Shown one piece after another: positions 2,417 through 57,512 of a stretch of DNA of 64,000 nucleotides. Below the pieces are notes generated by a model. The model saw nothing but the letters and a program-made list of their open reading frames with translations. It did no database searches and had not been told where the DNA came from. This stretch comes from Clostridia bacterium (GTDB taxonomy: Bacteria > Bacillota > Clostridia > Oscillospirales > CAG-272): contig JAFVQW010000001.1 in NCBI GenBank assembly GCA_017504605.1, forward strand, positions 58,845-122,844, read 5' to 3'. The position numbers and the translations under genes were made by a program. Each line of letters begins with the position of its first letter. Position 1 is the first letter of the stretch.

Positions 2417-2420
2417 ACCG

Positions 2421-42740: not shown

Positions 42741-42763
42741 AAAACGACTTAATAATTCCCGGG

Positions 42764-42833
42764 TGCACAGAGCGGATTTTTTCCACTCTGTGCATTTTTT
42801 ACATTTTTGCCGCCCGAGGGGGCGGCTTTTTTT
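42764..42833 (+). terminator. two tandem intrinsic terminators after the ABC-F gene
   Basis: Hairpin 1: TGCACAGAG (42764-42772) pairs with CTCTGTGCA (42786-42794), followed by TTTTTT. Hairpin 2: GCCGCCC (42809-42815) pairs with GGGCGGC (42820-42826), followed by TTTTTTT. Confidence 0.8.
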
Positions 42834-42847
42834 GTCAGCCCTCTTTA

Positions 42848-42876
42848 CTTACAAAAGCCGCCCCGTGCTCTATAAT
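42848..42876 (+). promoter_or_regulatory. candidate promoter for the phage-like cluster
   Basis: CTTACA (42848-42853), a 17-nt spacer, then consensus TATAAT (42871-42876). It is the only promoter-like element between the terminators and the first cluster gene. Confidence 0.45.
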
Positions 42877-42944
42877 TGTAGGTGTCGGGAGGCCCCCGAG
42901 TGGCAAAAGGGGACAGGCTACGCACCCGACGGAATGAGGAGAAA

Positions 42945-43280
42945 ATGAAAAAAAGGGTAAGGTACAAAAGCGATTTGCCGCGGCTTATGTATACCTATTT
43001 TATCGGCTACTCCGAGGGGGGCGCACCGAGCTTTGACAAATTTGCGCGGAGCATCGGTCTTACCCTATCGGAGCTTGAGGAGTTCAAATCACACAGCGAG
43101 TTTCTTCGCGCCTGGCGGGAATGCAGCGAAATCCGAAGAGATTATCTTATTGACACAGCGCTGGCAAAGCGGGCAGATGCCTCTCTCGTGAAATTCCTTC
43201 TCACAGCCGAGTACGGTATGCGTGAGCCCGTGGCAGCCGAGGAAAGCACTGTCTCGGTGACGGTCGAGGTTGTGGAATGA
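42945..43280 (+). CDS. small terminase-like protein
   Basis: 111 aa from ATG 42945 behind a GAGGAG RBS. HTH-like segment (FARSIGLTLSELEEF) and a C-terminal LVKFLLTAEYGM typical of small terminases. ATGA overlap with the large terminase gene. Confidence 0.55.
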   Translation: MKKRVRYKSDLPRLMYTYFIGYSEGGAPSFDKFARSIGLTLSELEEFKSHSEFLRAWRECSEIRRDYLIDTALAKRADASLVKFLLTAEYGMREPVAAEESTVSVTVEVVE

Positions 43281-44641
43281 AGCTGCACCTCACCGTAACT
43301 AAAAAGCAAAAGCAGTTTATCGACGCCACCGAGAGCGAGGTGCTCTTCGGCGGGGCGGCGGGCGGGGGAAAGTCCTACGGACAGATTGTGGACGCGCTTC
43401 TCTTTGCGCTGAAATATCCGAGGTCGAAGCAGCTCGTTCTGCGACGCACCTTCGCCGAGCTCGATAAATCACTTATACGCTCGGTGCTCTCGCTCTATCC
43501 GCGAGAAATCTTTTCCTTTAATTCCTCCTCACATTCGGGCAAATTCAAAAACGGCTCCTGTATAGACTTCGGCTACTGTGCCGCGGAGAACGACGTATAT
43601 CAGTATCAAAGTGCGGAATACGACGTCGTCCGCTTCGACGAGCTGACACACTTCACCGAGGCGCAGTACGTCTATCTCATTTCGCGAGTGAGAGGGGCCA
43701 ACGGATACCCGAAGCAAATCAAATCCTCGACCAACCCCGGCGGCGTGGGGCACTCCTGGGTGAAGTCGAGGTTCGTCGACCCCGCAGAGCGTGGCGTGGG
43801 CTTCGTCGGGGGCGACGGAATGAGGCGGATTTTTATCCCCTCTCTTCTCTCGGACAACGGCTTCCTAAAAAGAGGCGACCCCGATTACGAAAAACGCCTC
43901 TTGGCTCTTCCCGAGCGGGAGAAGAAGGCACTGCTCTACGGTGACTGGAACATTTTTGAGGGACAGTATTTCACCGAGTTTTCAAGAGAGCGCCACGTTA
44001 TCCCGCCCTTCGAAATTCCGCCCTCGTGGCGAAAATACCGAACGCTCGATTACGGACTCGACCGCCTCGCGGTTCTCTGGATAGCGGTCGCCCCCGACGG
44101 TACGTCCTACGTATACAGAGAGCTGTGCGAGTCGAATCTTTCAATCAGCGCCGCCGCGCGTGCCATAGGCGAGCACACGCCGAGGGGAGAGGATATTTAC
44201 GCCACCCTCGCGCCGCCCGACCTATGGTCGCGCTCGCAGGAGACGGGCAGGACGAAGGCGGGGATTTTTTCCGAGCACGGAATTAACTTCACTAAAACCT
44301 CGAACGACAGAGAGACGGGGTGGCTGTCGGTAAAGGAGCTGCTCTCCGACAGTGAGGGGCGGCCGAGGCTTAAAATCTTCTCGCAGTGCACCGAGATTAT
44401 TAAATGCCTGCCCGCGCTCTCGATTGACAGAATACGCCCCACCGACTGCGCGACAGAGCCCCACGAAATCACACACGCCCCCGATGCTTTGCGCGGCTTT
44501 GCGATATTTTATACGAGGCCGAATTCACCCGTATGCGAGGTGAAGCGGCAAATCTGGACACCCGATATGTGGGAGGACTACCGCACGGCAGACGAGGAGG
44601 GCAAAAAATACCTAAAAGCTAAATACGGAGAACCAAAGTGA
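43277..44641 (+). CDS. terminase large subunit
   Basis: 454 aa. Walker A (FGGAAGGGKSYG), Walker B-like VVRFDELTH and a C-terminal nuclease-like region (DYGLDR...). Confidence 0.9.
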   Translation: MKLHLTVTKKQKQFIDATESEVLFGGAAGGGKSYGQIVDALLFALKYPRSKQLVLRRTFAELDKSLIRSVLSLYPREIFSFNSSSHSGKFKNGSCIDFGYCAAENDVYQYQSAEYDVVRFDELTHFTEAQYVYLISRVRGANGYPKQIKSSTNPGGVGHSWVKSRFVDPAERGVGFVGGDGMRRIFIPSLLSDNGFLKRGDPDYEKRLLALPEREKKALLYGDWNIFEGQYFTEFSRERHVIPPFEIPPSWRKYRTLDYGLDRLAVLWIAVAPDGTSYVYRELCESNLSISAAARAIGEHTPRGEDIYATLAPPDLWSRSQETGRTKAGIFSEHGINFTKTSNDRETGWLSVKELLSDSEGRPRLKIFSQCTEIIKCLPALSIDRIRPTDCATEPHEITHAPDALRGFAIFYTRPNSPVCEVKRQIWTPDMWEDYRTADEEGKKYLKAKYGEPK

Positions 44642-46422
44642 AAATTGAATATAAAGCGGAAAGAGAGCGCCTCGATTTCTTCAGGGCGCTCTACGCCGAT
44701 GCACTCTCGGCATACGCCGAGGAGCTCACGTCTCTTGAAAGATGCATGAAGCAGTATCGCGGCACCGATGAAATCGACGGCTCCGACACACGCGCCATCA
44801 CCGTAAGAAATATCACCTACGAAATAGTGGAGAGCCAGGTGCTCTCGGATATTCCCATGCCGAAGGCCGACCCCGCGTCGTACAGTGTACGGCGCTCGCG
44901 TAACGCCGAGAGCATAGAGCGGCTCTGCCGCTCGCTCCGAGACAGGCTCCCCTTCGAGGAGTTTAACGACATCGACGAGCGATACACCTACATATACGGC
45001 GGCAGCGTGTGGTATGCAGAGTGGGACAACTCCACCGAATACGACGGAGAGGTCGGCGGCGTGCGCGTTCACTGCATCTCGCCGAGAGACTTCCTCCCGC
45101 AGCCCGGAATTCACAAAATCGAGGATATGGAGTACTGCTTCCTGCGCTTCACCACCACTCGCGGGGAGCTCTCGCGTAAATACGGTGTGGACGGTGAGGA
45201 GGCGGCGCTCGCCGACCTCGAATACGAGTGGGGCGGTGAGGGAGATGCGGTCACGCTCACCCTCTGCTTCTACCGCGACGAGGACGGAGACATCGGAAGA
45301 TTTATCTTCTCGGGCGAGCTTACTCTCTCGGATATGCCGAAGTACTATATGCGAAAGGGCAGAGTCTGCTCTGTATGCGGCTCCGAGGCGGGGCTCTGCT
45401 CCTGCGTCGGCGCACACACGCTGACGAAGAACCTCACCTACGAGCTTATTCCCGAGGATATTATCCTCGGCGACGGCGCTACCCTGCCCGCCGACGCCCC
45501 AAGCCTTGACGGCGATAAAATCAAAATGGGGCGCTCGAGAATTCCCTATTACGTGCCCCGCTCCTTCCCTATAGTAATAAGGAAGAACACCTCGGGAGAA
45601 AAGAGCCTCTTCGGTCAGTCCGACTGCGACTACATACGCCCCGAGCAGCAGGCAATCAACAAAATCGAGTCGAGAATACTCGCGAAGCTGCTCCGCTCGG
45701 GAATTACACCTATAATGCCCGAGGATGCGAGCGTTACTCTCAACAACTCGGTCTTCGGCCAGGTGATAAAAATGAAGCCCGGGGAGAGCGCCGCACAGTA
45801 CGGAACCGTCGACACGACCCCCGACATCTCGCAGGACATCGCCGAGGCCGAGCGCCTCTACGACCACGCGAAAAGAATAATCGGTATATCCGATGCCTAC
45901 CAGGGAGTGGACACCCACAAAAGCGAGTCGGGCTATGCAAGACAGCTCAGGATTTCGCAGGCGAGCGGCCGACTTGAATCGAAGAAGCGAATGAAGCACA
46001 CCGCCTACGCCGCGCTCGACAAAATTATATTCGGGCTCTATCTTGCCTTTGCCGACGAGCCGAGAAAGCTCGCCTACCGCGATGCCTTCGGCACCGTACA
46101 CCCGACGGAATTCAACCGCTACGACTTTATCGAATACGACCTATACCGCGGAGAATTCTTCTACGACGACGGCTATCTGTTCTCGGTCGACCAGAACGGC
46201 GGCGCGGAGTACCAAAGAGAGGCGCTCTGGGAGAGAAATCTCGAAAATCTCAAGGCCGGCACGCTCGGTAACCCCGAGAGCCCCGCAACGCTTCTTCGCT
46301 ACTGGCAGAGCCAGGAGCGCGCACATTACCCCTACGCAAGGGAGAACGTCGAGTACTTCTCCCGTGCGCTCGAGGAGAAAGGAGTGGATATAAGCTATGA
46401 AGAGAACGAATTCAAGCCTTGA
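44638..46422 (+). CDS. portal protein with a Cys4 insertion
   Basis: 594 aa. GTGA overlap with the terminase gene and a GGAG RBS 7 nt upstream. Its size and position follow TerL. Portal-like core (SLFGQSDCDYIRPEQQAINKIESR). CSVCGSEAGLCSC lies at 45361-45411. Confidence 0.72.
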   Translation: MKIEYKAERERLDFFRALYADALSAYAEELTSLERCMKQYRGTDEIDGSDTRAITVRNITYEIVESQVLSDIPMPKADPASYSVRRSRNAESIERLCRSLRDRLPFEEFNDIDERYTYIYGGSVWYAEWDNSTEYDGEVGGVRVHCISPRDFLPQPGIHKIEDMEYCFLRFTTTRGELSRKYGVDGEEAALADLEYEWGGEGDAVTLTLCFYRDEDGDIGRFIFSGELTLSDMPKYYMRKGRVCSVCGSEAGLCSCVGAHTLTKNLTYELIPEDIILGDGATLPADAPSLDGDKIKMGRSRIPYYVPRSFPIVIRKNTSGEKSLFGQSDCDYIRPEQQAINKIESRILAKLLRSGITPIMPEDASVTLNNSVFGQVIKMKPGESAAQYGTVDTTPDISQDIAEAERLYDHAKRIIGISDAYQGVDTHKSESGYARQLRISQASGRLESKKRMKHTAYAALDKIIFGLYLAFADEPRKLAYRDAFGTVHPTEFNRYDFIEYDLYRGEFFYDDGYLFSVDQNGGAEYQREALWERNLENLKAGTLGNPESPATLLRYWQSQERAHYPYARENVEYFSRALEEKGVDISYEENEFKP

Positions 46423-47113
46423 GGACTTCCTCGAGAAGTATCTGAAGAATAAGTCTCTCTACGAGGGCGCCGACAGCTATGAGAGCTACGTCAGGAAAAA
46501 TGCCAAAAATCCGCGCACGGTATACGCCTCGGCTCTGCCCGAGCTCTATTCGAGCCGCGCGCGCTCGAGGGGTGGCTACGGCTCGAGCGCCGAGAGGCTT
46601 GCCGAGGCGGGCCTCTTCGGCAGCGGCTATCAGGAGCACCTCGAGCGCGCCGCCGAGAGAGAGCATAACGAGAGGCTCGACGAGCTCGAGCGGGATATGC
46701 GCGAGAGCGAGGACACCCTTCTCGGCGGCTACACCGCCTATCTCGATAAATACAAGTCGAGCCAGGAAAAGCTCTCGAAGAGCGTCAGCGACAAGATAGT
46801 TAGCACGGGCATTTTAAGCGAGGAGCGCGCCTACGAATACGCGAAGGAGGCGGGCCTCTCCGCCGAGCGTGCGCGGTCGGTGGCCGAGAGAGCCTCGCGC
46901 AGTGCAAAGGACAAGCTTATGCGCCGCATAATGCTCGAAATCCCCTATATGCAAATGGACGGAGAGGGCGCGCGGCTTTATGCGCTCAGCCTCGGTCTTG
47001 ACAGCAATTACGCCGAGCGCGCAAGGGAATACGCCGAGAGCCTGAGAGAGCACTACGACACCGTAGGCTCGTCCTATCTCGAGTATCTTGCAAGCAAGGG
47101 AAACCAATACTGA
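46397..47113 (+). CDS. highly charged helical protein, unknown function (head-internal or assembly candidate)
   Basis: 238 aa, rich in Glu, Arg and Lys. Its start is embedded 26 nt inside the portal 3' end. Confidence 0.5.
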   Translation: MKRTNSSLEDFLEKYLKNKSLYEGADSYESYVRKNAKNPRTVYASALPELYSSRARSRGGYGSSAERLAEAGLFGSGYQEHLERAAEREHNERLDELERDMRESEDTLLGGYTAYLDKYKSSQEKLSKSVSDKIVSTGILSEERAYEYAKEAGLSAERARSVAERASRSAKDKLMRRIMLEIPYMQMDGEGARLYALSLGLDSNYAERAREYAESLREHYDTVGSSYLEYLASKGNQY

Positions 47114-47134
47114 TTTTTTGAAAGGAACTAAAAA

Positions 47135-47275
47135 ATGAAGGATTACAAAAACCGCGACAAGAGTGCCCCCTATCGCACCAACAAGGGCGGCAAAATCTCC
47201 GCCCCCGTGGCACAGACCAACGAGCCGAGGTGCACCTCGGTCAAGGGTAAGGGCGACCTCAGAGGTGGCAAATGA
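47135..47275 (+). CDS. unlisted 46-aa basic ORF
   Basis: ATG 47135 follows GAAAGGAA. Translation MKDYKNRDKSAPYRTNKGGKISAPVAQTNEPRCTSVKGKGDLRGGK. Its stop overlaps ATG 47272. It is below the ORF-track size cut-off. Confidence 0.3.
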   Translation: MKDYKNRDKSAPYRTNKGGKISAPVAQTNEPRCTSVKGKGDLRGGK

Positions 47276-47751
47276 TGACTGATAAGACCGTTATCGAAAG
47301 CGAAGAGACCGAGAGGAGCGAAGCAGAGAGTGCCGCCGAGGTAAGCACCGACGGCGCACCCGAGGCCGAGAAGGAGACCGAGGGGGCCCCCGAAGAGAGC
47401 CCCGAGGAGAGCCCCGCCCCCATCGACTACGAGAGCGTAATCAAGGAGGATATCGCCCTTCTTCGGCGAACCTTCCCCGAGCTCTCGGGCATCTCCGATA
47501 TAACCGAGCTCGAGAACCCCTTAAGATACGCCGCTCTGCGCGACCTCGGCCTTACACCCGCCGAGGCCTATCTCGCCACCGAGAGGGGGCGTAGGGCCGA
47601 CACCCGCTCGCACCTTTTCGGTGCGGTGCCGAGAGGAGCGAGCAGTCCCTCGGGCTCTATGAGCCAGAAGGAGCTCGAGGGTGCACGCGAGATTTTCTCG
47701 GGAATGTCGGACGCCGACATTCAGAAGCTCTACCGCAAGGTTACGCTTTAA
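47272..47751 (+). CDS. scaffold-like protein
   Basis: 159 aa with a very acidic N-terminal half and a helical C-terminal half. Sits between the portal and capsid genes. Confidence 0.5.
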   Translation: MMTDKTVIESEETERSEAESAAEVSTDGAPEAEKETEGAPEESPEESPAPIDYESVIKEDIALLRRTFPELSGISDITELENPLRYAALRDLGLTPAEAYLATERGRRADTRSHLFGAVPRGASSPSGSMSQKELEGAREIFSGMSDADIQKLYRKVTL

Positions 47752-47767
47752 AAGAAAGGAGAACGAA

Positions 47768-48175
47768 ATGTTCAAGTTAGCTAAAATTTTAAACTCCGCA
47801 TCCAACGTGGTAGAGCCCTGCCGTATGCCGAGGGGAAAGGGCGCGAGCTACAGGCTCGGCTCACTCGCTCTCTTAAAATCGGGCGCTCTCGAAAATGCCG
47901 CGGCAACCGAGACCCCGACCTTCGTCATCGGTGAAAGCCTCACCGATGAGGCGGCCTCCACCGTGCTCTGCTACCCCATAAGCCCCGATATGATTTTCGA
48001 GGCCGTATGCAGCGGGGACCCCACGTCTCTCGTGCCCGGCGCGCGCGTTACGCTGAATATCGTTGACGGCTCCGCCGTCGGCGTTACCGCGAGCACCTCG
48101 GGGGGCGTGTGCGAAATCTTCAACCTCGGCGGCGCCAAAAACGTCGGCGACGCCGTATTCGTCAGAATAGTTTAA
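47768..48175 (+). CDS. small beta-rich capsid accessory protein (decoration/cement-like, by position)
   Basis: 135 aa from ATG 47768 behind AAAGGAGAA; the track ORF starts earlier, inside the previous gene. Lies immediately upstream of the capsid gene. Confidence 0.45.
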   Translation: MFKLAKILNSASNVVEPCRMPRGKGASYRLGSLALLKSGALENAAATETPTFVIGESLTDEAASTVLCYPISPDMIFEAVCSGDPTSLVPGARVTLNIVDGSAVGVTASTSGGVCEIFNLGGAKNVGDAVFVRIV

Positions 48176-48193
48176 TAAAAAGGAGAGTAAAAA

Positions 48194-49255
48194 ATGATAA
48201 TTTATTCCAAGTCCCAGGGACTTAACAACGCCGCCATAGGCAAGCTCGAAACGCCTATCAAAATGGTAATCGAGCACGAGAGCGACCTTCTCACAAAGAG
48301 GGGCGGCGTGTGCGACTGGCTCTTTAACGTCGAGAAGAGCGGCAAGTTCGGCGAGACCATAATCGGTCAGAACGAGTTTGACGTATTCAGAGCGGCAGAG
48401 GAGGGCGCGGGCGCCGAGAACGACACCATAAGCGAGACCTACCGCAAATTCATCGAGCACATTCAGTTTATGAAGGAGTTCACCATCACCGCCGAGATGA
48501 TGGAGGATGCGAACTACGGCGTGGCACAGGATGCCAAGCGCCGTGCCGAGAACTTCACGCGTGCATACTACAAGACTATGCACAAGATATGCGAGTACGC
48601 ACTTGCAAACGGTACACAAACCGACGGCACCTTCGCCAAGGCGACCCTCGACCTCACCGCCCCCGACGGCCTTCCCCTCTTCTCGGATTCTCACAAGTGG
48701 GGCGGCGGCAGCGGCAATACCGGCACGCAGTCCAACTACTTCTACGGCGACATCTTCAAGAGCGGAACGGGCAGTGCGAGAGTTGCCTCGACTGCGGCCT
48801 TTGAGGAGGCGCTCGGCGAGCTCGCCGTCAAGATGAGAAATCAGAAGGACGAGAACGGCGAGGTGCTCGGCTACACGGCTGACACCATCATTCTCCCCGG
48901 CAACAGACCCATAGCCGAGACCATTGTCAAGAAGGTATGCGGCTCCGAGGGCAGCCTTGGCGGCAGTCTCAACGACATCAACCTTCAGTTTGGCAACTGG
49001 AGCATAGTAATTATGCCCACCTGGCAGACCGAGGACGACAGAGTGATGATAATGTCGAGCGAGGCTAATAAGAACCTCTCGGGTAATATGTTCTTCAACC
49101 GCGTGCCTCTGACCGTTACGAGCTGGGTGGACAACCACACCGGCAACTACATTTGGAACGGCAGATGCCGCTTCGGCGTCGGCTTCGGCAACTATAAGCA
49201 CATTATGCTTGCCGTTGACTCCGAGAGCGCGGTTAGCGGCGCTTCCGCGATGTAA
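48194..49255 (+). CDS. major capsid protein (HK97-fold type expected)
   Basis: 353 aa behind an AGGAGAG RBS. Size, position and composition are typical of major capsid proteins, and the locus has a scaffold but no protease. Confidence 0.78.
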   Translation: MIIYSKSQGLNNAAIGKLETPIKMVIEHESDLLTKRGGVCDWLFNVEKSGKFGETIIGQNEFDVFRAAEEGAGAENDTISETYRKFIEHIQFMKEFTITAEMMEDANYGVAQDAKRRAENFTRAYYKTMHKICEYALANGTQTDGTFAKATLDLTAPDGLPLFSDSHKWGGGSGNTGTQSNYFYGDIFKSGTGSARVASTAAFEEALGELAVKMRNQKDENGEVLGYTADTIILPGNRPIAETIVKKVCGSEGSLGGSLNDINLQFGNWSIVIMPTWQTEDDRVMIMSSEANKNLSGNMFFNRVPLTVTSWVDNHTGNYIWNGRCRFGVGFGNYKHIMLAVDSESAVSGASAM

Positions 49256-49282
49256 ACAAACAATTACACGGAGGGCTTTGCA

Positions 49283-50116
49283 TTGACACTTAACGAATTG
49301 CAAAGAGAGGTTATGCACCTCGGCTTTGAAACACAAATTGAGGACACCGAGGCTCTTATCTCGGCAACCTCGCTCGCGCTCGGGCTGCTCTATACCGACA
49401 GGCCCGTAAAGAAGCGGCTCGAGCTCGCGGTGTGCCCCATAACGCCCCTATCCCGTGTCGAGAAAATAAGCCTTTCGGGAGGGGAAGAGGTAACTCTTCC
49501 CCTTTCGGGGCTTGCCTTTGCACTCGAGGTCTCGGGCTCGGGTAGGGTTGTCACCTTCGACGGCAAAATGAAAAAGGAGACCGAGCTTGATACCGAGCAC
49601 TCCCTGCTTCGCGGCAGGCTGTTCACAGAGGGAGAAATTACCCTTTATGCAAAGGGGCAGCTCACGGTATTCAATCTCGTTTGCTACCGCGAGAGCCTCG
49701 ACGAGAAGGACATTCCGCCCTTCTCGGTGACAAGGAGCATCAGCCTTTGCGATGCGGCGGAGGATTTTGCGGCGGCGCTCGCCCTGCCCCGCGATAGCTC
49801 GGGCCGCGAGATACCGGGAGCGGCGATTATCGGTGACACTCTCACTCTTCCCTCTGACTTCTTCGGCACCCTCTCGCTCCCCTATCGCGCACGCCCGCCG
49901 AAAAGAGAGGAGATTGCAAGAGGCGAGGAGCTTGCCGCCGACCCCGAGGCCGAGCATCTTCTGCCGCTCCTTACCGCTTCCTTCCTCTGGCTTGACGACG
50001 ATGATGAAAAGGCACGGTATTATATGTCGCTCTATCGCGATGCCCAAAGCACTATGCGCCGCTACGGCACGCACGCCGCCGCGGCGGAATATAAGACCGT
50101 GGACGGGTGGGCGTGA
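49283..50116 (+). CDS. head-tail adaptor-like protein
   Basis: 277 aa from TTG 49283, 7 nt after a GGAGGG RBS. The N- and C-terminal helical segments resemble head-tail connector proteins around a central insert. Function is inferred mainly from position. Confidence 0.45.
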   Translation: MTLNELQREVMHLGFETQIEDTEALISATSLALGLLYTDRPVKKRLELAVCPITPLSRVEKISLSGGEEVTLPLSGLAFALEVSGSGRVVTFDGKMKKETELDTEHSLLRGRLFTEGEITLYAKGQLTVFNLVCYRESLDEKDIPPFSVTRSISLCDAAEDFAAALALPRDSSGREIPGAAIIGDTLTLPSDFFGTLSLPYRARPPKREEIARGEELAADPEAEHLLPLLTASFLWLDDDDEKARYYMSLYRDAQSTMRRYGTHAAAAEYKTVDGWA

Positions 50117-52791
50117 TGGCAGTAAAGGGTTACGGAAGCAACACCGAATACACCCGCTCCTACCGCGGCTTCTCGGGCGTTATGCTCGGGGGCGGCAGCG
50201 TATCGAGCGGCAGGCTTGCCGAGGCGGTAAATATGTACCGCGACTACGACGGCGAGGGACAGAGCGTAATCGAGAGCGTGCCCGGCTACCGCCGCCTCTT
50301 TTCGGTCGGGGAGAGAATAAACGCTATCTATCTTTTCAAGACCTTCGAGGCGGGGGAGCTTCTCCTTATCCACGCGGGAGGCTCGCTCTACAGGTCTAAA
50401 ATATACTCAAAGGACCTGCCCGAGAAAATAGGCGAGATTTCCGACACGAGGAGCACGGGCTTTCCCTTCGGTGACTTCTTTTATATTCTTGACGGAAGTA
50501 AGATACTAAGGATTTCCCCCGCGGGAGAGGTACACGAGGTAGGCAGTGAGGGAGCCCCCGCCTACGTGCCCACGCTCTATCTGAACGGCTCGCCCTACGA
50601 GACGAGAAATCTCTTGACCGACAGCTTTATCGAGAAATACGAGGGCTACGATGCCGCGTCGTTAGCATACGGCACGCCCGAGCTTACCTACAGAATTACC
50701 GACCGCGACCTGTCTCTGTGCGAGGTCTCGGGAGTGGCCGAGGGCTTCACGGGCGCTATCTATGTGCCGGGCAGCGTAATTATCGGCGGCAGGCGCTATA
50801 CCGTCGCTAAGATAGGAAACTATGCCTTTAGGGACAACCTAAATATCACAGACGTTATTATCGGCGAGGGGGTAGAGGTCATAGGCAGACAGGCCTTCAC
50901 CCGAGCAACCGCTCTAAAGCGTGCAGTTATCGCAGGCAGTGTACACGAAATTCAGTACGGCGCCTTCCACGGCTGCTCGGTAATGAACGAGCTCTTCGTC
51001 GGCGCGGGAATGAAGACTGTCGGAGAGGAGGCTATTACCTCCTGCTACTCGCTCGATAGCGTTTTCTTCGGCGGTGACGAGCGCGCCTTCTCCGAGATTT
51101 CGGGCTCCGAGCATCTGTCGATAAAGGAAATAGCCTACGACACGCACTATACCGCAGTGCGTATAGAGCTCCCGCTTCACGCCGATGCAATATCGGTGGA
51201 GCGGCTCACCGTTGGAGATGCTGATACCGAATTCGAGACGGTATACGATGCCGACCGAGTGAAAAGCATTATTCTCGATATAGACACACCCGAGGAAATA
51301 AACAACAAAGCGCTTGCCGTATACGGCACCGAGCGTCCGCTCTACAGCTCCTTCTCGGCCTCCGCCACGGACAGCGAGGACGGGAAAATACGCGGCACCG
51401 ATGCAATCCTACACTGCCGCACGGCCGAGCTCTTCGACGGGCGTGTATTCCTAACGGGTAACGATGCGCTCTCGAACACCGTCTTCTTCTCGGCAAGAGA
51501 CAAGAGCGGAAGAAGCACTCCGCTATACTTCGGCGCGCTGAACTACTTTAACGACGGCGTGGGAAAATATCCCGTAACGGCCCTGCTCTCCGTGCGCGAC
51601 ACGCTCGCAGTCTTCAAGTCGGGGGACGACGGCTCGGGAAGCATATTCTACCACACCCCCGCCGACACGGGTGACGACCTTATGCCGAGAATATATCCCG
51701 TATCCTCGGTACACTCGGGGCTTTGCGCCCTTGGGGGAGCCTGCAACTTCCTCGACGACCCCGTATTTCTCTCGGTGCTCGGTCTCTCGGCGCTCGAGAG
51801 GCAGCCGATAAGCCTCGAGCGGAGCATCGCGGTACGCTCTCATAATGTAAACCTTGATTTACTTAAAGAGGACTTGAGCTCTGCCTCGCTCGTTGAATGG
51901 CTGGGGTATCTTTGTATAGGCGTCGGGGGCAATATTTATCTTGCCGACTCGCGCAGCACCTTCCTACACGAGACGGGCAGCCGTGAGTACGAATGGTTCG
52001 TTATGAAGGGGGTAGGCACCTATAGCGATGCCGCGCGCGGCTTCCGCTTTGACAGCAGCTCACCCCGCGAGGACGTGCTCGTTCACGAGCTGGCCGAGAG
52101 CGTGTGTCGGGGAACGGTTTTTTCGACGAGCGATGAATTAGGCAGCTACAGCTTCTGTGTGATAGACGGACAGCGCTATGCGGTCTACCCGACAGGCGAG
52201 AGCGTGGGCGGAGATTTTTATCCCGCGAGAACGCTCTTCAGCGACGGACGGCTTCTCCTTTTCGGTAACGACCGCGGAGACGTGTGTATTTTCAATAACG
52301 ACATGCGCGGAGTTGCGCCCGAGAGAATAAGCACCAAGGCCGACTTTGACGAAAAGAGCTATAAGGCGAGAATGGGCAGCAGAATTCACCCCGACTTCTA
52401 TTCCTTCGACGGACACGCTCCGACCTACCTTATCAAAACCGCCTTCGACGACTGCAATATTCCCCACCTCGCAAAGAGTACGGTAAAGCACTCGCTCGTA
52501 ATCAAGTGTAAAAGCTACACGGGTACCCACGTCAGCCTCTCTGTAGGCACCGACAGGCGCGGATTTACCGAGCCTCTTTATCTGCCGGGCGGAGAGCTCG
52601 ATTTCGACCAGCTTGATTTTTCCTCCCTTACCTTCTTCTTCGGAGACTACTTCTCGCTCCCCGTCAATGAAAAGGAAAAGAATTGGGTCGAAAAGCAAAT
52701 CGCGATATCCTCCGACGGCTTCGCCTCGCCGATAGGAATTTACTCGATAACCTACCGCTACACGGTTAAGGGCAAGATTAAGCGGAGCTGA
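50116..52791 (+). CDS. large tail protein (nozzle/tail-hub candidate) with an embedded LRR_5-type repeat block
   Basis: 892 aa from ATG 50116 (TGATG junction). The LRR block at ~50690-51120 reads YTVAKIGNYAFRDNLNITDVIIGEGVEVIGRQAFTRATALKRAVIAGSVHEIQYGAFHGCSVMNELFVGAGMKTVGEEAITSCYSLDSVFFGG. The rest is beta-rich. Confidence 0.6.
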   Translation: MAVKGYGSNTEYTRSYRGFSGVMLGGGSVSSGRLAEAVNMYRDYDGEGQSVIESVPGYRRLFSVGERINAIYLFKTFEAGELLLIHAGGSLYRSKIYSKDLPEKIGEISDTRSTGFPFGDFFYILDGSKILRISPAGEVHEVGSEGAPAYVPTLYLNGSPYETRNLLTDSFIEKYEGYDAASLAYGTPELTYRITDRDLSLCEVSGVAEGFTGAIYVPGSVIIGGRRYTVAKIGNYAFRDNLNITDVIIGEGVEVIGRQAFTRATALKRAVIAGSVHEIQYGAFHGCSVMNELFVGAGMKTVGEEAITSCYSLDSVFFGGDERAFSEISGSEHLSIKEIAYDTHYTAVRIELPLHADAISVERLTVGDADTEFETVYDADRVKSIILDIDTPEEINNKALAVYGTERPLYSSFSASATDSEDGKIRGTDAILHCRTAELFDGRVFLTGNDALSNTVFFSARDKSGRSTPLYFGALNYFNDGVGKYPVTALLSVRDTLAVFKSGDDGSGSIFYHTPADTGDDLMPRIYPVSSVHSGLCALGGACNFLDDPVFLSVLGLSALERQPISLERSIAVRSHNVNLDLLKEDLSSASLVEWLGYLCIGVGGNIYLADSRSTFLHETGSREYEWFVMKGVGTYSDAARGFRFDSSSPREDVLVHELAESVCRGTVFSTSDELGSYSFCVIDGQRYAVYPTGESVGGDFYPARTLFSDGRLLLFGNDRGDVCIFNNDMRGVAPERISTKADFDEKSYKARMGSRIHPDFYSFDGHAPTYLIKTAFDDCNIPHLAKSTVKHSLVIKCKSYTGTHVSLSVGTDRRGFTEPLYLPGGELDFDQLDFSSLTFFFGDYFSLPVNEKEKNWVEKQIAISSDGFASPIGIYSITYRYTVKGKIKRS

Positions 52792-52813
52792 TTAAAAAAG
52801 AAAGGAAAGAAAA

Positions 52814-53281
52814 ATGAATATTCAACCTATTTCGGACAGTGAAATATCGGCACTGAAGGTGTCATCACTGCCCACAAGGCCTACCGCCCCCGCCGCCTTC
52901 GGCGGGCGCGGCTATACCGCGAGCGAGATGAAGGCGGCGTTTGATATGCTCCCGCTTTTCATAATCGAGCGCCTGAACGCGCTCATCGCCTATTTAAAAT
53001 CCGAGCCCGACGACTACTCCGTCGCAAGGGATATTCTGACGGGCCTCTCGGAGGGGCACACGCTCTACGACCTCTTCGGCGAAATCCGCGAGGGCTCGCT
53101 CGGTGACAGGCTCTCGGTGCTCGGCGAGGCACTGCCCTCGGCCCTCACGGATATAAGGCTCGAGCTCGCGGACCTCGACAAAAAAATCGAGTCGGCCTCG
53201 GGAGAAATCGACAATCTTTTGCTCGATGCCGGCGGCCCCGCCGATATGCTCGAGATAGAGGAAGGGGGGAGTGAGGAATGA
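52814..53281 (+). CDS. fibre-associated coiled-coil protein, unknown function
   Basis: 155 aa. N-terminal LPTRPTAPAAFGGRGYTASEMKAAFD, then helical heptad-like sequence and an acidic tail. ATGA overlap with the next gene. Confidence 0.5.
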   Translation: MNIQPISDSEISALKVSSLPTRPTAPAAFGGRGYTASEMKAAFDMLPLFIIERLNALIAYLKSEPDDYSVARDILTGLSEGHTLYDLFGEIREGSLGDRLSVLGEALPSALTDIRLELADLDKKIESASGEIDNLLLDAGGPADMLEIEEGGSEE

Positions 53282-53745
53282 AATGCTTAATGCAGCAGCT
53301 CCGCGGAACGAGTGACGAATGGCAACAGAACGACAGAGTTATTCCCGCGGGTACCATTGCCCTTCTTGACGACGGTGACGGCCGCTTCTCGGTAAAGATA
53401 GGAGACGGCGAGAGAGCCTTCTCGGCCCTGCCCTTCCTCGGCTCGAGGGTTAAGAGCACGAGTGAGGTAAACATTCTGCTCGAGCGAGCAGACGACGTTC
53501 GGTACGGAGTAATGACCGAAATTAACGTATCCTTCCCCGACCCGATAGAGGAGGATTATTACGCTACGCTCTGCTTCGACACGAACGACGAGGGAACTAT
53601 GCTTTCGGTTCCCGAAGAGGTGCGCTGCGCGGGCAGCTCCTGCTACTCGGGCTACTTCTATCCCGACTTCAACTGTCACTATACCCTCGTATTCTGGTAC
53701 GACGGGGCTATTCAGTGCACGGTGAGGGGCGTGTACCATGAATAG
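53278..53745 (+). CDS. tail-fibre protein with a HylP/Mtd-type N-terminal motif
   Basis: 155 aa. LRGTSDEWQQNDRVIPAGTIALLDDGDGRFSVKIGDGERAFSALPFL matches the conserved phage hyaluronidase/tail-fibre N-terminus (R.S..EW....vl..GEig.e.D.g..KiGDG...fs.L.yl). Confidence 0.6.
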   Translation: MKCLMQQLRGTSDEWQQNDRVIPAGTIALLDDGDGRFSVKIGDGERAFSALPFLGSRVKSTSEVNILLERADDVRYGVMTEINVSFPDPIEEDYYATLCFDTNDEGTMLSVPEEVRCAGSSCYSGYFYPDFNCHYTLVFWYDGAIQCTVRGVYHE

Positions 53746-54961
53746 GCGTATTCTCAGTGCGGTTTTAAGCAGTGTCGATAAGGCCCCCACCTCCTCGACG
53801 GGTCTCGGCATCGTTACCTACACCGCCGAGGACGGCGGCTCACTGCGTAGCGTAACGGTTATCGGCAATACGGTGGCGAGCGTTAGTAACCCCGTATACC
53901 CCACCGTTGCCACGTATACGCACGCGGGCGACCCCGTTACCCTCGACGACGGCACGACGGGCTACCGCTTCAACCTGAGAATTCACGGCGCGAACTTCCT
54001 CGATGCCGACGAGTTTCTCAGAATATGCCGCATACTGCGCCCCGATATGATAGCAGATGAGGACGAGGAATTCTTCTACCTCAATTGCCCCGCGGCAACC
54101 GAGCCCATCGACCTTGTGACCAATTCCTACGTTGCGCTCGCAAAGACACAGTACACCTTCCGCGCGGGCGCCATAGCCGAGGGCAGAGTTATCGGCGGTG
54201 TCTTTAACTTCAATCTTCAGATGTCGCACGTGGAGAGCTCGAGAATCTACTCCTACAAGGCCTCGGGTGCCACCGAGGGAGTTAACCATATAGCGGTCGT
54301 GGGCCTGCCCTACGACACCCCGCGAGCACTTCAGTACGTATATTCCAACAAGATTATGCCGATAATCGCCTTTGAGAAGAAGAGCTTCGGCATATTCCAG
54401 GGATACAATCCAACAGTGCTCGAGAGCGTGGAGAAATACCGCGGCATAAGCGCCGAGCTTATTCTCAGCGAGCCCCTGCGCTCGTTTAAGGGGGCCTCGG
54501 AAACGGTTGCCGACGAATACTCGCTCGGCACGGGCAAAATTGTTCGCTACGTACGCGAGATGCAGCTCGACCGCCGCGTATACCTCTACCTTATGACCTA
54601 TAAGGAAACGCGGATTTATTACGCCGTAATAAAGAGCGAGCCCGCCGTGGCAAGCGGCCCCGCCGCCGCGAGCTGCCTCAAGAGCGTGAGGAACCTCGAC
54701 GCGCTCGTCGGAACGACCTACAGCTGCTGTGTGAGCAGCAGCGGCTGGCACTTCTATTTCACGCTCTCCGACGACTACACCACGGCGGACGAGGCTATGG
54801 ATTTCATCACCGCGCATCCGATAACCGCCTTCTATAAGAGAGCAACGCCCGTATATGAGGATGCAAAGAGGGTGGCGCCGGTGTCCTACCGCGGCGAGGT
54901 CAACGTAGAGGCGGCCTCGGTAAACCGCCCCTACGTCAAGGCAGAATATATCCAACCATAA
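53738..54961 (+). CDS. putative distal fibre / receptor-binding protein
   Basis: 407 aa, beta-rich. 8-nt overlap with the fibre N-terminal gene. Function is inferred from position. Confidence 0.5.
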   Translation: MNRRILSAVLSSVDKAPTSSTGLGIVTYTAEDGGSLRSVTVIGNTVASVSNPVYPTVATYTHAGDPVTLDDGTTGYRFNLRIHGANFLDADEFLRICRILRPDMIADEDEEFFYLNCPAATEPIDLVTNSYVALAKTQYTFRAGAIAEGRVIGGVFNFNLQMSHVESSRIYSYKASGATEGVNHIAVVGLPYDTPRALQYVYSNKIMPIIAFEKKSFGIFQGYNPTVLESVEKYRGISAELILSEPLRSFKGASETVADEYSLGTGKIVRYVREMQLDRRVYLYLMTYKETRIYYAVIKSEPAVASGPAAASCLKSVRNLDALVGTTYSCCVSSSGWHFYFTLSDDYTTADEAMDFITAHPITAFYKRATPVYEDAKRVAPVSYRGEVNVEAASVNRPYVKAEYIQP

Positions 54962-54982
54962 AGCAAGGAAAGGAAAAAAGAA

Positions 54983-55210
54983 ATGTACGCAAAATTAAAC
55001 GAAGACGGCACGCTTTCCACAATCTCGGGGCGGCTTATTAAGGTCGCGGGCAGAGCCATAACCAACCCAACGCCCGAGCTCCTTCGGGCATCGGGGTATA
55101 AGCCGCTCGTCCCCGACGAGCCGCCCGAAATTCCCGGCGAGGTGCATAACGCATACTACGAGGAAACCGAAGACGAGATAAGGCTCGTTTTCGAGAAGGA
55201 GGAGCAGTGA
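54983..55210 (+). CDS. small fibre-adjacent protein (possible assembly chaperone)
   Basis: 75 aa. MYAKLNEDGTL...NPTPELLRASGYKPLV resembles small proteins commonly encoded beside Firmicute phage fibres. The assignment is weak. Confidence 0.4.
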   Translation: MYAKLNEDGTLSTISGRLIKVAGRAITNPTPELLRASGYKPLVPDEPPEIPGEVHNAYYEETEDEIRLVFEKEEQ

Positions 55211-55599
55211 CGGTATTAAATTACACGGTATCGGACGGCTACGGAGAGATAAGCTCCTTCGTCGGCGGCGGTGGCCGCGCGGTATTTAAAATAGACGGTG
55301 CGGCGGGCGGCGTGCTCCACGTCGGGCGGCTCTGTGCCCCGATTATCGACGGGCGCTGTGAGATAAATCTCAGCAAGCTCCCCGACGGCGACTACACCCC
55401 GATAATATCCGTAAAATCGAGGGGCATAGAGCTCGAGGGGATACGCAAGTTCGGCAGAGAGCTTCTCCCCCTGCCCACCTCTGAAAAAACGCTAAGACGG
55501 CTGATTAGCCGTGTGGCAAAATTAGAGGACAGGCTCGGCCGTGCCGAGGCGGAAATCGCCGCGCTTTCCGAAAAAATCGCGCGCGGCTTAACGTTCTGA
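55207..55599 (+). CDS. hypothetical protein with a C-terminal coiled coil
   Basis: 130 aa. GTGA overlap with the upstream gene. C-terminus LRRLISRVAKLEDRLGRAEAEIAALSEKI. Confidence 0.45.
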   Translation: MTVLNYTVSDGYGEISSFVGGGGRAVFKIDGAAGGVLHVGRLCAPIIDGRCEINLSKLPDGDYTPIISVKSRGIELEGIRKFGRELLPLPTSEKTLRRLISRVAKLEDRLGRAEAEIAALSEKIARGLTF

Positions 55600-55616
55600 A
55601 AGAAAGGAAACAACAA

Positions 55617-56228
55617 GTGAAAAGAAACAAGAAAACTCTACTGATAAGCATTTTAATCATCGCTCTTCTGTGCCTTTTCTCCGCCTCGGCCTACGCCGCC
55701 GAGGAGGAGAGCCCGGAGAGCGTGACGGGGGCGGCAGAAGCCGAGGAGAGCCCCTTCTCGGTTATCTTCGAGGCCGTCAGCGAATACGCAACGGAAATAT
55801 TCTGTGCCCTCTCCTTTATCGGCTCTCTTATTCTCTCCTTCGCATATAAAAAGGGGCTGTTGCCACTCTTACGCGGAGCCCTGACGAGCCTCGGCGGCAC
55901 GGTTGGCAAGCTAAGCGAGAACGTCGAGAGCGAGAGCGAGAAGAATAAGGAGCTCTGCCTCGCGCTCAGCTCGGGCCTCGAGCGTGCCGAGAGTGTCATC
56001 GAAAGGACGGACGAGGGAATGAAAAAAATCGCCGAGCGCCTCGATGCGCTTAGCGAGGATGCGGGCGAGCGGGAGCGCTTCAACACCGTTATGCGGGAGC
56101 AGGTAGAGCTGCTCTACGACGTCTTTATGTCCTCGTCTCTTCCTCAGTACAAGAAGGACGAAATAGGCGAGCGTGTCGCAAAAATGAGAATGGAGCTTTC
56201 GGAAAATGAAGCGGCAGACAAAGAGTAA
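55617..56228 (+). CDS. secreted or membrane protein with one extra TM helix and a long coiled coil
   Basis: 203 aa from GTG behind AAAGGAAA. Signal peptide (LLCLFSASAYAAEE), a second hydrophobic helix (IFCALSFIGSLILSFAY) and a charged helical C-terminal half. Confidence 0.5.
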   Translation: MKRNKKTLLISILIIALLCLFSASAYAAEEESPESVTGAAEAEESPFSVIFEAVSEYATEIFCALSFIGSLILSFAYKKGLLPLLRGALTSLGGTVGKLSENVESESEKNKELCLALSSGLERAESVIERTDEGMKKIAERLDALSEDAGERERFNTVMREQVELLYDVFMSSSLPQYKKDEIGERVAKMRMELSENEAADKE

Positions 56229-56580
56229 GAGCCTCGCCCTTCGCGCTCTCGGTATGCTTCTTTGCACCCTTCCTCCCGCCCTGGCGACCGTCAGCTTCTT
56301 TCCCCTCTGGATGTCAAGAGGAAGTGAGAGCGTGCTCTCGGGCTTTACCGTGCTCCTGCTTGCAATATGCGCGCTACCTCTTTGGCGCGCCCTGAAAAGG
56401 CTTCTCTCCTCGCCGAGCATACATACCGTGTGGCTTATTTTCTTTCTGTGCTTTCTCCTGCTCTCGAAAATTGCAGACGAGATGACGGTTATAGGCTTCG
56501 TCGGCTTTATATCGAGCTCGCTCGGCGCGATTTGCTTTCATTTCGCGCGGCGCGGGGAAGATAGCGAGGGGGCGGAATGA
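56206..56580 (+). CDS. small polytopic membrane protein (holin-like size, 3-4 TM)
   Basis: 124 aa, basic N-terminus followed by hydrophobic helices. Overlaps the upstream gene by 23 nt. Confidence 0.5.
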   Translation: MKRQTKSKSLALRALGMLLCTLPPALATVSFFPLWMSRGSESVLSGFTVLLLAICALPLWRALKRLLSSPSIHTVWLIFFLCFLLLSKIADEMTVIGFVGFISSSLGAICFHFARRGEDSEGAE

Positions 56581-57443
56581 AAAACGACTTTGAGGCCTCA
56601 CTCATCAAGAGCGGCGAGATAATTAAGCGCGGCGCAGGGACCCTGCTCGAAAACCTCGGCAAGATAATCGCGCTCCTGACGGCCATTATTGCCGCTCTCG
56701 TAATATTTACCGAGATAAGCTTCTCGGGCTTCGGCACCGAGCGCGTAACCACGACCCTCTTCGTCATTCTCGGCGCATCCTACATAATCTACTTTTCTCT
56801 TGAGGATGCGGGCGAGCGTGCGGCAAGGTCGTCGGAGAGCTATATAGCTGTGAGCGAGGAGTACCGCTCGCGGCGCGAGAAAATACGCGGCGAGGATATA
56901 GAGGAGCTACGTGCCTTTTGCTCGGAATATACCGAGCGGGAGCTCGAATACAGGCGGCGCGAATTCCTTTTCGCACACGGCCTCGGCCCCGGGGGCTACT
57001 CCGAGTATCTCTCGGGTAAGGACTGTCGGCGCAGCGAGCGGCGCATATATAAGCGGGCGCGGGCCCTGCGCCCCGTGCCCCTGACCCCCGCGGCACTTCT
57101 CTCCGACGAGCGCGGGGGCGGAAGGAGCGAGCTTCGCTCGCCCGAGGGGGATAAGCTCCTGCGCTTCACCCTGCGCCTAATTCCGACCACGCTCTGTATG
57201 ATTTTCACGGTGTCGGTGGCTCTTAATCTGCGCGACGGGCTGACTGCCGAGAGCATTATCGAGGGTGTCCTTAAGCTCTCAACTCTGCCGCTTGCGGCAT
57301 ATAAGGGCTACACGGGCGGCTGGGGCTACGTAAGCGGGCCTCTCTCGGACTGGCAGAGGACCCGTGCCGATATTCTCGATGCATTTCTGGGGAGAAAATG
57401 TAAACAAGAGCTTACACCCGTATTTTTATCCTCCGAAACTTGA
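56577..57443 (+). CDS. membrane protein with two TM pairs and a large basic cytoplasmic loop
   Basis: 288 aa. ATGA overlap behind a GAGGGGG RBS. TM helices LLTAIIAALVIF and TLFVILGASYIIYF, plus later hydrophobic segments. Confidence 0.55.
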   Translation: MKNDFEASLIKSGEIIKRGAGTLLENLGKIIALLTAIIAALVIFTEISFSGFGTERVTTTLFVILGASYIIYFSLEDAGERAARSSESYIAVSEEYRSRREKIRGEDIEELRAFCSEYTERELEYRRREFLFAHGLGPGGYSEYLSGKDCRRSERRIYKRARALRPVPLTPAALLSDERGGGRSELRSPEGDKLLRFTLRLIPTTLCMIFTVSVALNLRDGLTAESIIEGVLKLSTLPLAAYKGYTGGWGYVSGPLSDWQRTRADILDAFLGRKCKQELTPVFLSSET

Positions 57444-57468: not shown

Positions 57469-57512
57469 GATTATAGCTTACAAGGCGTGATTTTTTGAAA
57501 GGAGGGGCGGGT

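Follow-up and report, generated by a model that had tools for sequence, protein, structure and literature searches.

A predicted podovirus-type tail nozzle with an inserted leucine-rich repeat module in a gene transfer agent-like cluster of gut Clostridia

The stretch of DNA analyzed here (64,000 nucleotides of the Clostridia bacterium assembly GCA_017504605.1, contig JAFVQW010000001.1, positions 58,845 to 122,844; below, the window) encodes an 891-amino-acid (aa) protein which, judging from its modeled structure, is a podovirus-type tail nozzle with a module of BspA-type leucine-rich repeats (LRRs) inserted into its scaffold. The gene is part of a cluster, 14.6 kb in length and made up of genes for head, tail, and membrane proteins, that resembles a gene transfer agent (GTA) more than a prophage and that appears to be vertically inherited in uncultured gut Clostridia. 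We propose that the LRR module might act as the recognition surface of the particle that such a cluster would encode. None of the three elements (nozzle fold, LRR_5 module, podovirus-like GTA) is new by itself; an LRR_5 module in a nozzle, fixed in a widespread GTA-like cluster, is not described in the literature that we searched.

Structure of the predicted nozzle

The AlphaFold2 model of the protein, calculated from an alignment of 64 sequences, has a mean predicted local distance difference test score (pLDDT) of 88.5 and a predicted template modeling score (pTM) of 0.80. When this model was compared with the PDB by means of Foldseek, the first 27 matches came without exception from podophage tail or portal-tail assemblies, among them entries that bear the name of a nozzle (T7 gp12 and P22 gp10). 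The PDB matches comprise, among others, cyanophage A4 (9k09_U, E = 7e-20), Carin-1 (1e-16), LME-1 (1e-16), T7 gp12 (9jyz_P, 3e-15), SU10 (7z47_G, 1e-14), P22 gp10 (8eap_D, 1e-13), and Sf6 gp8 (6e-10), with the template modeling score on the target (TMt) being highest for compact nozzles of ~470-520 aa (0.71 for Pa223 and 0.69 for P22 gp10). Stand-alone LRR structures (6mlx, 4gt6, 4fs7, and 4oju, the last with a TMt of 0.82; identity 20-26%) come after these assemblies in the ranking. Predicted viral structures matched in BFVD bear the names “tail tubular protein B,” “P22 gp10,” and “stabilization protein.” No nozzle family was matched by sequence in Pfam or PHROG, and a profile search of the PDB returned no solved nozzle at E <= 1; since sequence methods gave LRR and propeller matches and no nozzle, the relationship is visible at the level of the fold only.

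The gene lies in a portal-major capsid protein (MCP)-adaptor-nozzle module, directly downstream of the adaptor gene, with its ATG overlapping the stop of that 277-aa open reading frame (ORF). The adaptor assignment comes from the family: Pfam SU10_adaptor is found in 13 of 19 family members (best E = 2.1e-7), the window copy itself being unmatched, and the family profile has a weak match to the tail tubular protein A of cyanophage A4 (9k09_d, E = 0.52). The window protein is thus like the nozzles of T7 (gp12), P22 (gp10), Sf6 (gp8), SU10, and cyanophage A4 in its fold and post-adaptor gene position and is likewise accompanied by an SU10-type portal and adaptor, while differing from them in an LRR-bearing insertion of ~277 aa and in belonging to a chromosomally fixed cluster instead of a phage genome. 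A preliminary description of the window, made from the letters and ORFs, had placed the protein at a nozzle or tail-hub position behind an adaptor-like gene, and both points are borne out by these comparisons.

The preliminary description had also named a common stand-alone surface protein, unrelated to virions, as a reading that would speak against its own. The public name of the identical protein P0001, “leucine-rich repeat protein,” points that way (the few named relatives carry this name or “hypothetical protein,” and most are unnamed), as does the fact that LRR_5 is the sole Pfam match in the 891 residues. However, the protein in its entirety is modeled with the fold of a podovirus nozzle, and the LRR module of ~160 residues leaves about 730 of the 891 residues outside it. 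Further, reading the translation by eye reveals a hydrophilic N terminus (MAVKGYGSNTEYTRSY) and no hydrophobic stretch of the kind found in signal peptides, and the gene stands between the adaptor and other cluster genes in nearly all fully covered loci. The fold contradicts a stand-alone surface protein, a reading that we regard as hardly credible, and we proceed with the predicted nozzle.

The LRR module as an insertion in the nozzle scaffold

Pfam LRR_5 (PF13306, BspA-type) matches residues 232-319 with an E value of 5.4e-13 (49.4 bits; gathering cutoff, 27.7), and the profile of the 64-member nozzle family retrieves BspA-type LRR proteins from the PDB (4gt6, 8e-51; 4fs7, 8e-50; TpLRR 6mlx, 2e-19). 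What had been described as about five LRR_5-type repeats over residues ~195-340 is indeed of that type and resolves into four repeats with caps, the model having strands at residues 244-249, 269-272, 292-295, and 315-318 (pLDDT of at least 92 across the repeats), flanked by a beta-hairpin N-cap (residues ~190-232) and a C-cap (residues 325-345). The repeat type, fold, N-cap hairpin, and C-cap are those of BspA-type LRR_5 surface proteins (the T. forsythia BspA family, TpLRR 6mlx, F. prausnitzii 4gt6, B. ovatus 4fs7, and B. capillosus 4oju), but those proteins are stand-alone or cell wall anchored with many repeats, whereas the nozzle carries four repeats inside a virion-type protein. Downstream, in the C-terminal half of the scaffold, profile positions 686-741 match designer and PQQ beta-propellers.

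The relatives of the protein bear out the earlier suggestion that the LRR block is an internal domain insertion. A 600-aa relative with a complete N terminus, P0380, aligns only to residues 10-140 and 418-884 of the window nozzle, and residues ~141-417 are hence an insertion. Between the invariant anchors N165 and D441, the 64 aligned members hold 247-324 aa of differing content, this being the common LRR cassette in 44, a divergent LRR-like cassette in 2, and unrelated non-LRR sequence in 18. In the model of one LRR-less member (P0069; pLDDT 83.7), a mixed alpha/beta domain replaces the LRRs, and the structure matches nozzles and no LRR structures. The small beta-rich domain that follows the repeats (residues 346-430) is also found in LRR-less relatives, according to the alignment consensus, and is the only part retained in P0343. 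Other relatives have gone further in the opposite direction: P0319 and P0345 have LRR-containing inserts much longer than that of the window nozzle, and in P0346 (1285 aa) two long LRR_5 arrays occupy another site of the N-terminal segment, before the conserved motif YIPITYYNG...YEQRN. HMMER searches with residues 431-891 alone retrieved 936 cluster representatives at E <= 1e-3 (402 at E <= 1e-30), and in the representatives listed this C-terminal half starts at residues ranging from 153 to 795, with some of the shortest being N-terminally truncated fragments. Taking these alignments together, we conclude that the LRR module sits in a genuine insertion at a hot spot of the nozzle scaffold.

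The module varies considerably while keeping its fold. In pairwise comparisons, LRR-bearing members average 52% identity over residues 431-640 and 34% in the LRR; the lowest means, 18-22%, are those of the C-cap and the beta domain behind it (22% for residues 346-430), which together form the fastest-evolving part of the nozzle. Across 84 sequences, the LRR core positions are conserved and the exposed positions have entropies of ~3-3.6 bits, which is near maximal; this pattern suggests that the LRR fold is under constraint. In close pairs, the ratio of nonsynonymous to synonymous substitution rates (dN/dS) of the LRR is 0.07-0.40, above that of the scaffold and below 1, and diversifying selection on the LRR is accordingly unsupported. 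Lateral exchange of LRR cassettes was considered for 79 loci and rejected, given that LRR identity tracks scaffold identity with no outlier pairs.

The cluster resembles a gene transfer agent

The cluster that contains the nozzle extends from a terminase small subunit (TerS)-like gene to that of a 288-aa protein, g288 (Table 1), and holds head, tail, and membrane-protein genes only, in the order TerS, terminase large subunit (TerL), portal, three small ORFs, MCP, adaptor, nozzle, the 155-aa ORF g155a, a variable stretch, and three ORFs with membrane-helix-like stretches. It lies directly between the genes of an ABC-F ATPase and a DinG-family helicase, with further housekeeping genes beyond both flanks. 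Scans of all ORFs against Pfam, PHROG, and NCBIfam found no integrase, replication, or lysogeny gene in positions 42882-57443. Prophage boundaries were likewise not found, there being no attachment site (att)-like repeat of >10 bp, no tRNA, and no shift in GC content or GC content at third codon positions (GC3) relative to the host flanks.

A scan of one genome per GTDB species detected nozzle relatives in 117 species, the best 80 of which were kept. All loci of these 80 are on chromosomal contigs of metagenome-assembled genomes (MAGs) from ruminant and human guts, and the taxa of the kept loci are uncultured Clostridia, Eubacteriales, Oscillospiraceae, or “Ruminococcus” MAGs. The bins of L019 and L082 are titled “Coriobacteriaceae bacterium” and “Akkermansia muciniphila,” respectively; as the cluster genes in both are like their counterparts in the Clostridia loci, they are probably binning contaminants and not cross-phylum occurrences. 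Together with loci L002-L004, 83 genomic loci were analyzed, and the nozzle bears the LRR cassette in every one of them. TBLASTN searches with all window proteins showed the gene order to be constant across loci. The complete cluster is present in 48 of the 49 loci that are covered with ~10-kb flanks, with a span of 10.6-16.2 kb (median, 12.7 kb), and the cluster order is preserved in no fewer than 48 uncultured gut Clostridia species. An ABC-F gene on the left and/or a DinG gene on the right is common to 38 of the 49 loci (ABC-F is the left neighbor in 19 and DinG the right neighbor in 26), and the DinG flank is often followed by PNP_UDP_1 and MiaB-like genes.

The cluster also diverges along with its hosts. 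Median identities to the window are 77% for the MCP, 74% for TerL, 63% for the portal, 41% for the nozzle, and 32% for the adaptor, compared with 69% for the host ABC-F protein, 57% for the PNP and MiaB-like proteins, and 52% for DinG; the tail genes diverge much faster than the head genes, as the values for the nozzle and the MCP illustrate. In close species pairs, the synonymous divergence (dS) of cluster genes is about that of the flanking ABC-F and DinG genes: in L009/L011, it is 0.19 for TerL and 0.30 for the nozzle versus 0.33 for ABC-F and 0.19 for DinG, and in L052/L053, 0.44-1.37 for cluster genes versus 0.88 for DinG. The dN/dS ratio is ~0.01-0.2 for every cluster gene, with the nozzle at 0.11-0.21 and the MCP and TerL lower.

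Missing mobility and lysogeny genes, the lack of att-like repeats and tRNA, and a position conserved across species speak against an ordinary integrated prophage. The cluster has features that are expected of GTAs, namely, head-tail genes only, vertical inheritance with conserved context, and purifying selection. From its head-tail-only content, chromosomal fixation, codivergence with the host, and purifying selection, we interpret it as a domesticated GTA-like element, and as far as its genes reveal, it resembles a GTA more than a prophage. The preliminary description had missed this point, namely, that the element appears to be a chromosomally fixed, vertically inherited head-tail cluster of the GTA type and not a normal prophage. 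Alternatively, the cluster could be a decaying prophage remnant whose LRR insertion has no current function, a view to which the failure to find integrase, replication, and identified lysis genes lends itself. We consider this very improbable: the ORFs are all intact, their order is unchanged in 48 of the 49 fully covered loci, every cluster gene combines a low dN/dS with a dS that matches the host flanks, and, with 1668 relatives of the MCP found, the best 120 matching protein clusters all have at least 80% identity to it.

Relatives among temperate podophages

Nozzles lacking the LRR lead to phages. The LRR-less nozzles of L085 and L086 belong, by the gene content around them, to real temperate podophages: L085 encodes a 2542-aa protein and a helix-turn-helix (HTH) regulator, and L086, a contig of 44 kb, encodes an integrase and a 2739-aa ART-PolyVal protein and has faint SU10_adaptor and weak Gp10_C matches. 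IMG/VR contains 60 related contigs, many of them of 37-48 kb with giant ORFs of 1.5-2.2 kaa (thousand amino acids) within the stretch fetched. The nozzle of these IMG/VR relatives is mostly LRR-less, with L091 having LRR_5 (1.8e-26) and the L092 group a weak LRR. The ~40-47-kb temperate gut podophages (L085, L086, L091-L096, and L114) have in common with the window the MCP (31-56% identity), the small head-module proteins g159 and g164, the adaptor, the nozzle, the N terminus of g155a, and the membrane-protein-like g124, while giant ORFs of 1.5-2.7 kaa, an integrase, and regulators are theirs alone and their nozzle cassettes are mostly non-LRR. Given the shared MCP, g159, g164, adaptor, nozzle, g155a, and g124, these phages are the likely ancestral stock, and the window cluster is likely to have been derived from such ~40-47-kb temperate podophages. 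Shortly upstream of the capsid gene, some of these phages have giant proteins of 2000-2700 aa (L085:1-6571, L086:1-6673, and L092:102-6326) with no counterpart in the window.

The gene that follows the nozzle is informative in this regard. In BLASTP searches, g155a matches the N-terminal 140 aa of a 568-aa post-nozzle protein of L085 (L085:12712-14415; 1e-15) and the N terminus of a 570-aa post-nozzle fiber-like protein of L114 (L114:12613-14322; 6e-7). The L114 nozzle is LRR-less, and it is the fiber-like protein encoded by the next gene that has LRR_5, at its C terminus (2e-18). In the window, only the 155-aa stub g155a is left of the fiber, and it is the nozzle that carries the LRR. These arrangements suggest that LRR_5 behaves as a mobile module of the tail in the related phages, one of its possible places being the distal end of a fiber. 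They also bear on the earlier statement that an LRR insert in a tail-hub-like protein has no precedent. No LRR nozzle is described in the literature that we searched, and to that extent the statement stands, but LRR nozzles occur in the related phages, and nozzle homologues in BFVD are named in UniProt as GLEYA adhesin or VWFA domain-containing proteins.

Comparison with known gene transfer agents

GTA-like packaging of host fragments of 4.6-8.9 kb has been reported in gut Ruminococcaceae, Oscillospiraceae, and Christensenellaceae, and a podovirus-like agent of Faecalibacterium prausnitzii, FpGTA, has been demonstrated by experiment, with data on the packaging and transfer of host DNA fragments (PMC12946183, Nat Commun 2026). 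Operon I of FpGTA encodes TerL (RCH50852), the portal (RCH50851), the MCP (RCH50849), the adaptor (RCH50847), and a “tail nozzle (PDB=8eap)” (RCH50846); its two operons, of 10.5 kb and 5.5 kb, lie ~125 kb apart, the second with a holin and an endolysin, and the MCP RCH50849.1 is annotated as belonging to the N4-gp56 family (PMC12946183). FpGTA and the window cluster have in common their occurrence in gut Clostridia, the podovirus-like GTA type, a chromosomal location without prophage functions, and the operon order of TerS-TerL-portal-small protein-MCP-adaptor-nozzle. The FpGTA nozzle was assigned via P22 gp10 (8eap), the structure that is also a Foldseek match of the window nozzle. On the other hand, FpGTA is split into two operons with an endolysin, whereas the window has one 14.6-kb cluster in which an endolysin is not recognized, and no LRR is reported for the FpGTA nozzle, unlike that of the window. 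The NCBIfam capsid families, including N4-gp56, gave no match to the window MCP and four relatives even at E <= 10, and no Faecalibacterium genome is among the best 80 of the 117 species. As a separate observation, an LRR domain-containing protein, RCH49135.1, is represented by 11 peptides in the proteome of the purified FpGTA particle preparation, with no function attached to it in the table (PMC12946183, supplementary file 4).

As compared by description and annotation, the window cluster is either a very divergent relative of FpGTA or an independent domestication. One could go further and see in it a second podovirus-type GTA family, maybe distinct from FpGTA (set apart by annotation, with an MCP outside the N4-gp56 NCBIfam family), that is vertically inherited in more than 100 uncultured gut Clostridia species and in which recipient recognition has moved from the fiber, now the stub g155a, to the LRR_5 module of the nozzle, which would then determine specificity; we offer this only tentatively and would not expect it to hold in all its parts.

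The alphaproteobacterial RcGTA is siphovirus-like and achieves recognition via head spikes and tail fibers, whereas the window cluster, as predicted from its genes, is podovirus-like. The two are alike in size, head-tail-only content, inheritance, host-like rate, and purifying selection, RcGTA being, according in part to PMC9662315 and PMC5721377, a head-tail cluster of ~14-15 kb that is inherited vertically and evolves at a host-like rate under purifying selection.

A proposed role for the LRR module

By analogy with T7 gp12 and P22 gp10, six nozzle subunits would form a hexameric DNA channel under the adaptor. Each subunit would display an LRR solenoid along with the small beta domain, and these would together make up an outward-facing collar on the nozzle. 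We postulate that this collar might bind an envelope ligand of the recipient cell and thereby orient the nozzle for DNA delivery. What the analysis shows directly is the LRR, the nozzle fold, the insertion, the content and synteny of the cluster, and purifying selection; hexamer geometry, outward orientation, ligand binding, and the production of a DNA-carrying particle are inferred. An adhesion or receptor surface, as first suggested in the preliminary description, is nevertheless a plausible role for the LRR: the conserved LRR core with its highly variable exposed positions and the faster evolution of tail than of head genes both count for a binding role, and a receptor role is helped by the fiber-like protein of L114, which combines a distal LRR_5 with a g155a-like N terminus. 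We give the entire chain, from a nozzle with an inserted LRR in a GTA-like cluster to an LRR collar that binds an envelope ligand of the recipient, slightly better than even chances.

Several points weigh against it. The true receptor-binding proteins could instead be g155b, which has a fiber-like N-terminal motif, and the orphan g407, both encoded in the variable stretch. The repeats themselves are less variable than the LRR C-cap and the adjoining beta domain, and the dN/dS of the LRR offers no sign of diversifying selection. Eight cluster ORFs are unannotated, so that the absence of regulatory and lysis genes rests on negative searches, and no endolysin was recognized in the cluster in the Pfam, PHROG, and NCBIfam scans.

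LRRs are general protein-protein interaction modules, which raises the possibility that the module is an internal docking platform for g155a or for g155b and g407, comparable to the fiber-dock domain of T7 gp12 that holds gp17. A fiber N-terminal stub and a variable tail region do follow directly after the nozzle, and the LRR is kept in all 83 genomic loci despite their differing downstream content. However, a docking partner should covary with its platform, yet the LRR surface diverges strongly while the N-terminal motif of g155a remains recognizable in distant phages. Moreover, the LRR_5 of L114 is in the C-terminal part of the fiber-like protein and not at its attachment end, and nozzle relatives without any insertion exist. 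On balance, we judge docking to be unlikely.

A different ligand has also to be weighed. In oral and gut bacteria, BspA-family LRR proteins are known to adhere to matrix proteins of the host, and the module might correspondingly bind a component of the animal host or its matrix (mucin or extracellular matrix) and so hold particles in the gut mucus. In keeping with this, the loci are all from mammalian gut metagenomes, and the nozzle has a weak NCBIfam match to the LRR adhesin HupY/LrrG (E = 2e-4). The score of that match is 19.6 bits, though, far under the cutoff of 1250, and the best identity to solved LRR structures is 20-26%, with no specific similarity to a characterized host-binding LRR. 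Since a nozzle contacts the target cell, a bacterial ligand is favored, and we consider binding to the animal host improbable compared with the collar that would recognize the envelope of a recipient bacterium.

Host LRR genes in the window

The preliminary description had noted the same repeat type in three chromosomal genes of the window. This is clear for one of them, the host BspA-type LRR gene at 1517-2479(-), and marginal for 23508-25820(-), in which LRR_5 covers residues 349-404 with 28.0 bits against a cutoff of 27.7; LRR_5 fails to match the third, 20349-21794(-), even at E <= 10. The latter two genes flank an MBOAT O-acyltransferase gene at 21807-23333(-) and share the motifs VIGGSSV..G and FYD..FHLND.G, which suggests that they encode paralogous acyltransferase-accessory proteins with short LRR-like segments.

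The possibility that the nozzle module had been exchanged with host surface proteins, also raised at that stage, finds no support here. The nozzle LRR is 23-35% identical to the LRR gene at 1517-2479(-) and has marginal similarity to 23508-25820(-), and BLASTN, run along with BLASTP and TBLASTN, found no nucleotide match of the nozzle LRR in the rest of the window. Recent exchange with the host LRR genes of the window was rejected on these grounds. In a search of 5.8 billion proteins, the best non-nozzle LRR proteins have 29-36% identity over ~100 residues.

Other genes of the cluster

The remaining cluster genes show different degrees of conservation (Table 1). The stretch between the nozzle and the homologues of the 203-aa ORF, g203, ranges from 0.3 to 4.2 kb across loci. 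Of its ORFs, g155b occurs in 27 of loci L002-L084, g130 in 15, g75 in 10, and g407 in only 2. The hypervariable stretch at 53278-55599 is likely to be the site of turnover of fibers or receptor-binding proteins; g155b has a weak match to the N termini of tail-fiber and tail-assembly PHROGs, and g407 and g288 have no matches in the PDB, Pfam, or PHROG. For the last three proteins of the cluster (203, 124, and 288 aa), a role in lysis or ejection is a guess. One foreign 54.8-kb contig has an MCP 87% identical to that of the window along with a nozzle only 57% identical. In the intergenic region at 42741-42881, ahead of the TerS-like gene, a promoter-like site (42848-42876; 10/12 matches) lies behind a strong terminator-like hairpin (42809-42826), which would fit transcription of the cluster as a unit of its own.

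Table 1. Features of the window discussed in the text (positions are those of the window)
Feature	Positions	Strand	Basis and remarks
Host BspA-type LRR protein, 320 aa	1517-2479	-	LRR_5, 1.2e-55
Host ABC-F ATPase, left flank	40824-42740	+	Pfam ABC_tran (twice), ABC_tran_Xtn
Terminase small subunit-like, first cluster gene	42882-43280	+	phrog_3064 “terminase,” 1.6e-10; Pfam GP3_package below cutoff
Terminase large subunit	43277-44641	+	Pfam Terminase_3, Terminase_6N; phrog_979, 1e-43
Portal	44638-46422	+	phrog_156, 1.3e-28; Pfam SU10_portal, 1.2e-7
Three small head-module ORFs (238, 159, 164 aa)	46397-48175	+	Position conserved across loci; no family matches
Major capsid protein, 353 aa	48194-49255	+	phrog_371 major head protein; Phage_capsid_4 on homologues
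Adaptor-like protein, 277 aa	49283-50116	+	Family matches Pfam SU10_adaptor
Predicted nozzle ORF with inserted LRR module	50116-52791	+	891 codons plus stop, no internal stops
N-terminal nozzle scaffold, residues 1-140	50116-50535	+	Matches P0380 residues 13-145; P56, G57, R59 invariant
Insertion relative to minimal nozzle, residues ~141-417	50536-51366	+	Missing from complete 600-aa relative P0380
BspA-type LRR module with N- and C-caps, residues 186-345	50671-51150	+	Pfam LRR_5 and PDB LRR matches
Four 23-residue LRR repeats, residues 233-324	50812-51087	+	Translation read directly; DSSP strand spacing of 23 residues
Small beta-rich domain 3' of LRR, residues 346-430	51151-51405	+	Six strands in model
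C-terminal scaffold half with beta-propeller blades, residues 431-891	51406-52788	+	HMMER relatives; propeller matches
g155a (155 aa), stub like N terminus of phage post-nozzle fiber-like proteins	52814-53281	+	BLASTP; in 76 of 84 loci searched
Variable tail region, ORFs of 155 (g155b), 407, 75, and 130 aa	53278-55599	+	Content and length differ by locus
Last three cluster ORFs (203, 124, 288 aa)	55617-57443	+	Hydrophobic membrane-helix-like stretches in translations; in 71-73 of 84 loci searched
Host DinG-family helicase, right flank	57495-59864	+	Pfam DEAD_2, Helicase_C_2

Implications

GTA-like packaging of DNA has lately been found to be common in gut Ruminococcaceae and Oscillospiraceae, and a gene cluster for such particles has been identified in Faecalibacterium only. 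In this context, the window offers a complete single-locus candidate for a GTA-like element, present in at least 117 species. Its nozzle belongs to a family whose scaffold accommodates large insertions at a defined site, ranging from none at all through non-LRR domains and a four-repeat LRR to arrays of more than 12 repeats, and this tolerance bears on the evolution of host range and on the engineering of short-tailed particles. The LRR module of ~160 residues would be a tractable candidate for the recognition determinant of an emerging class of gut GTAs.

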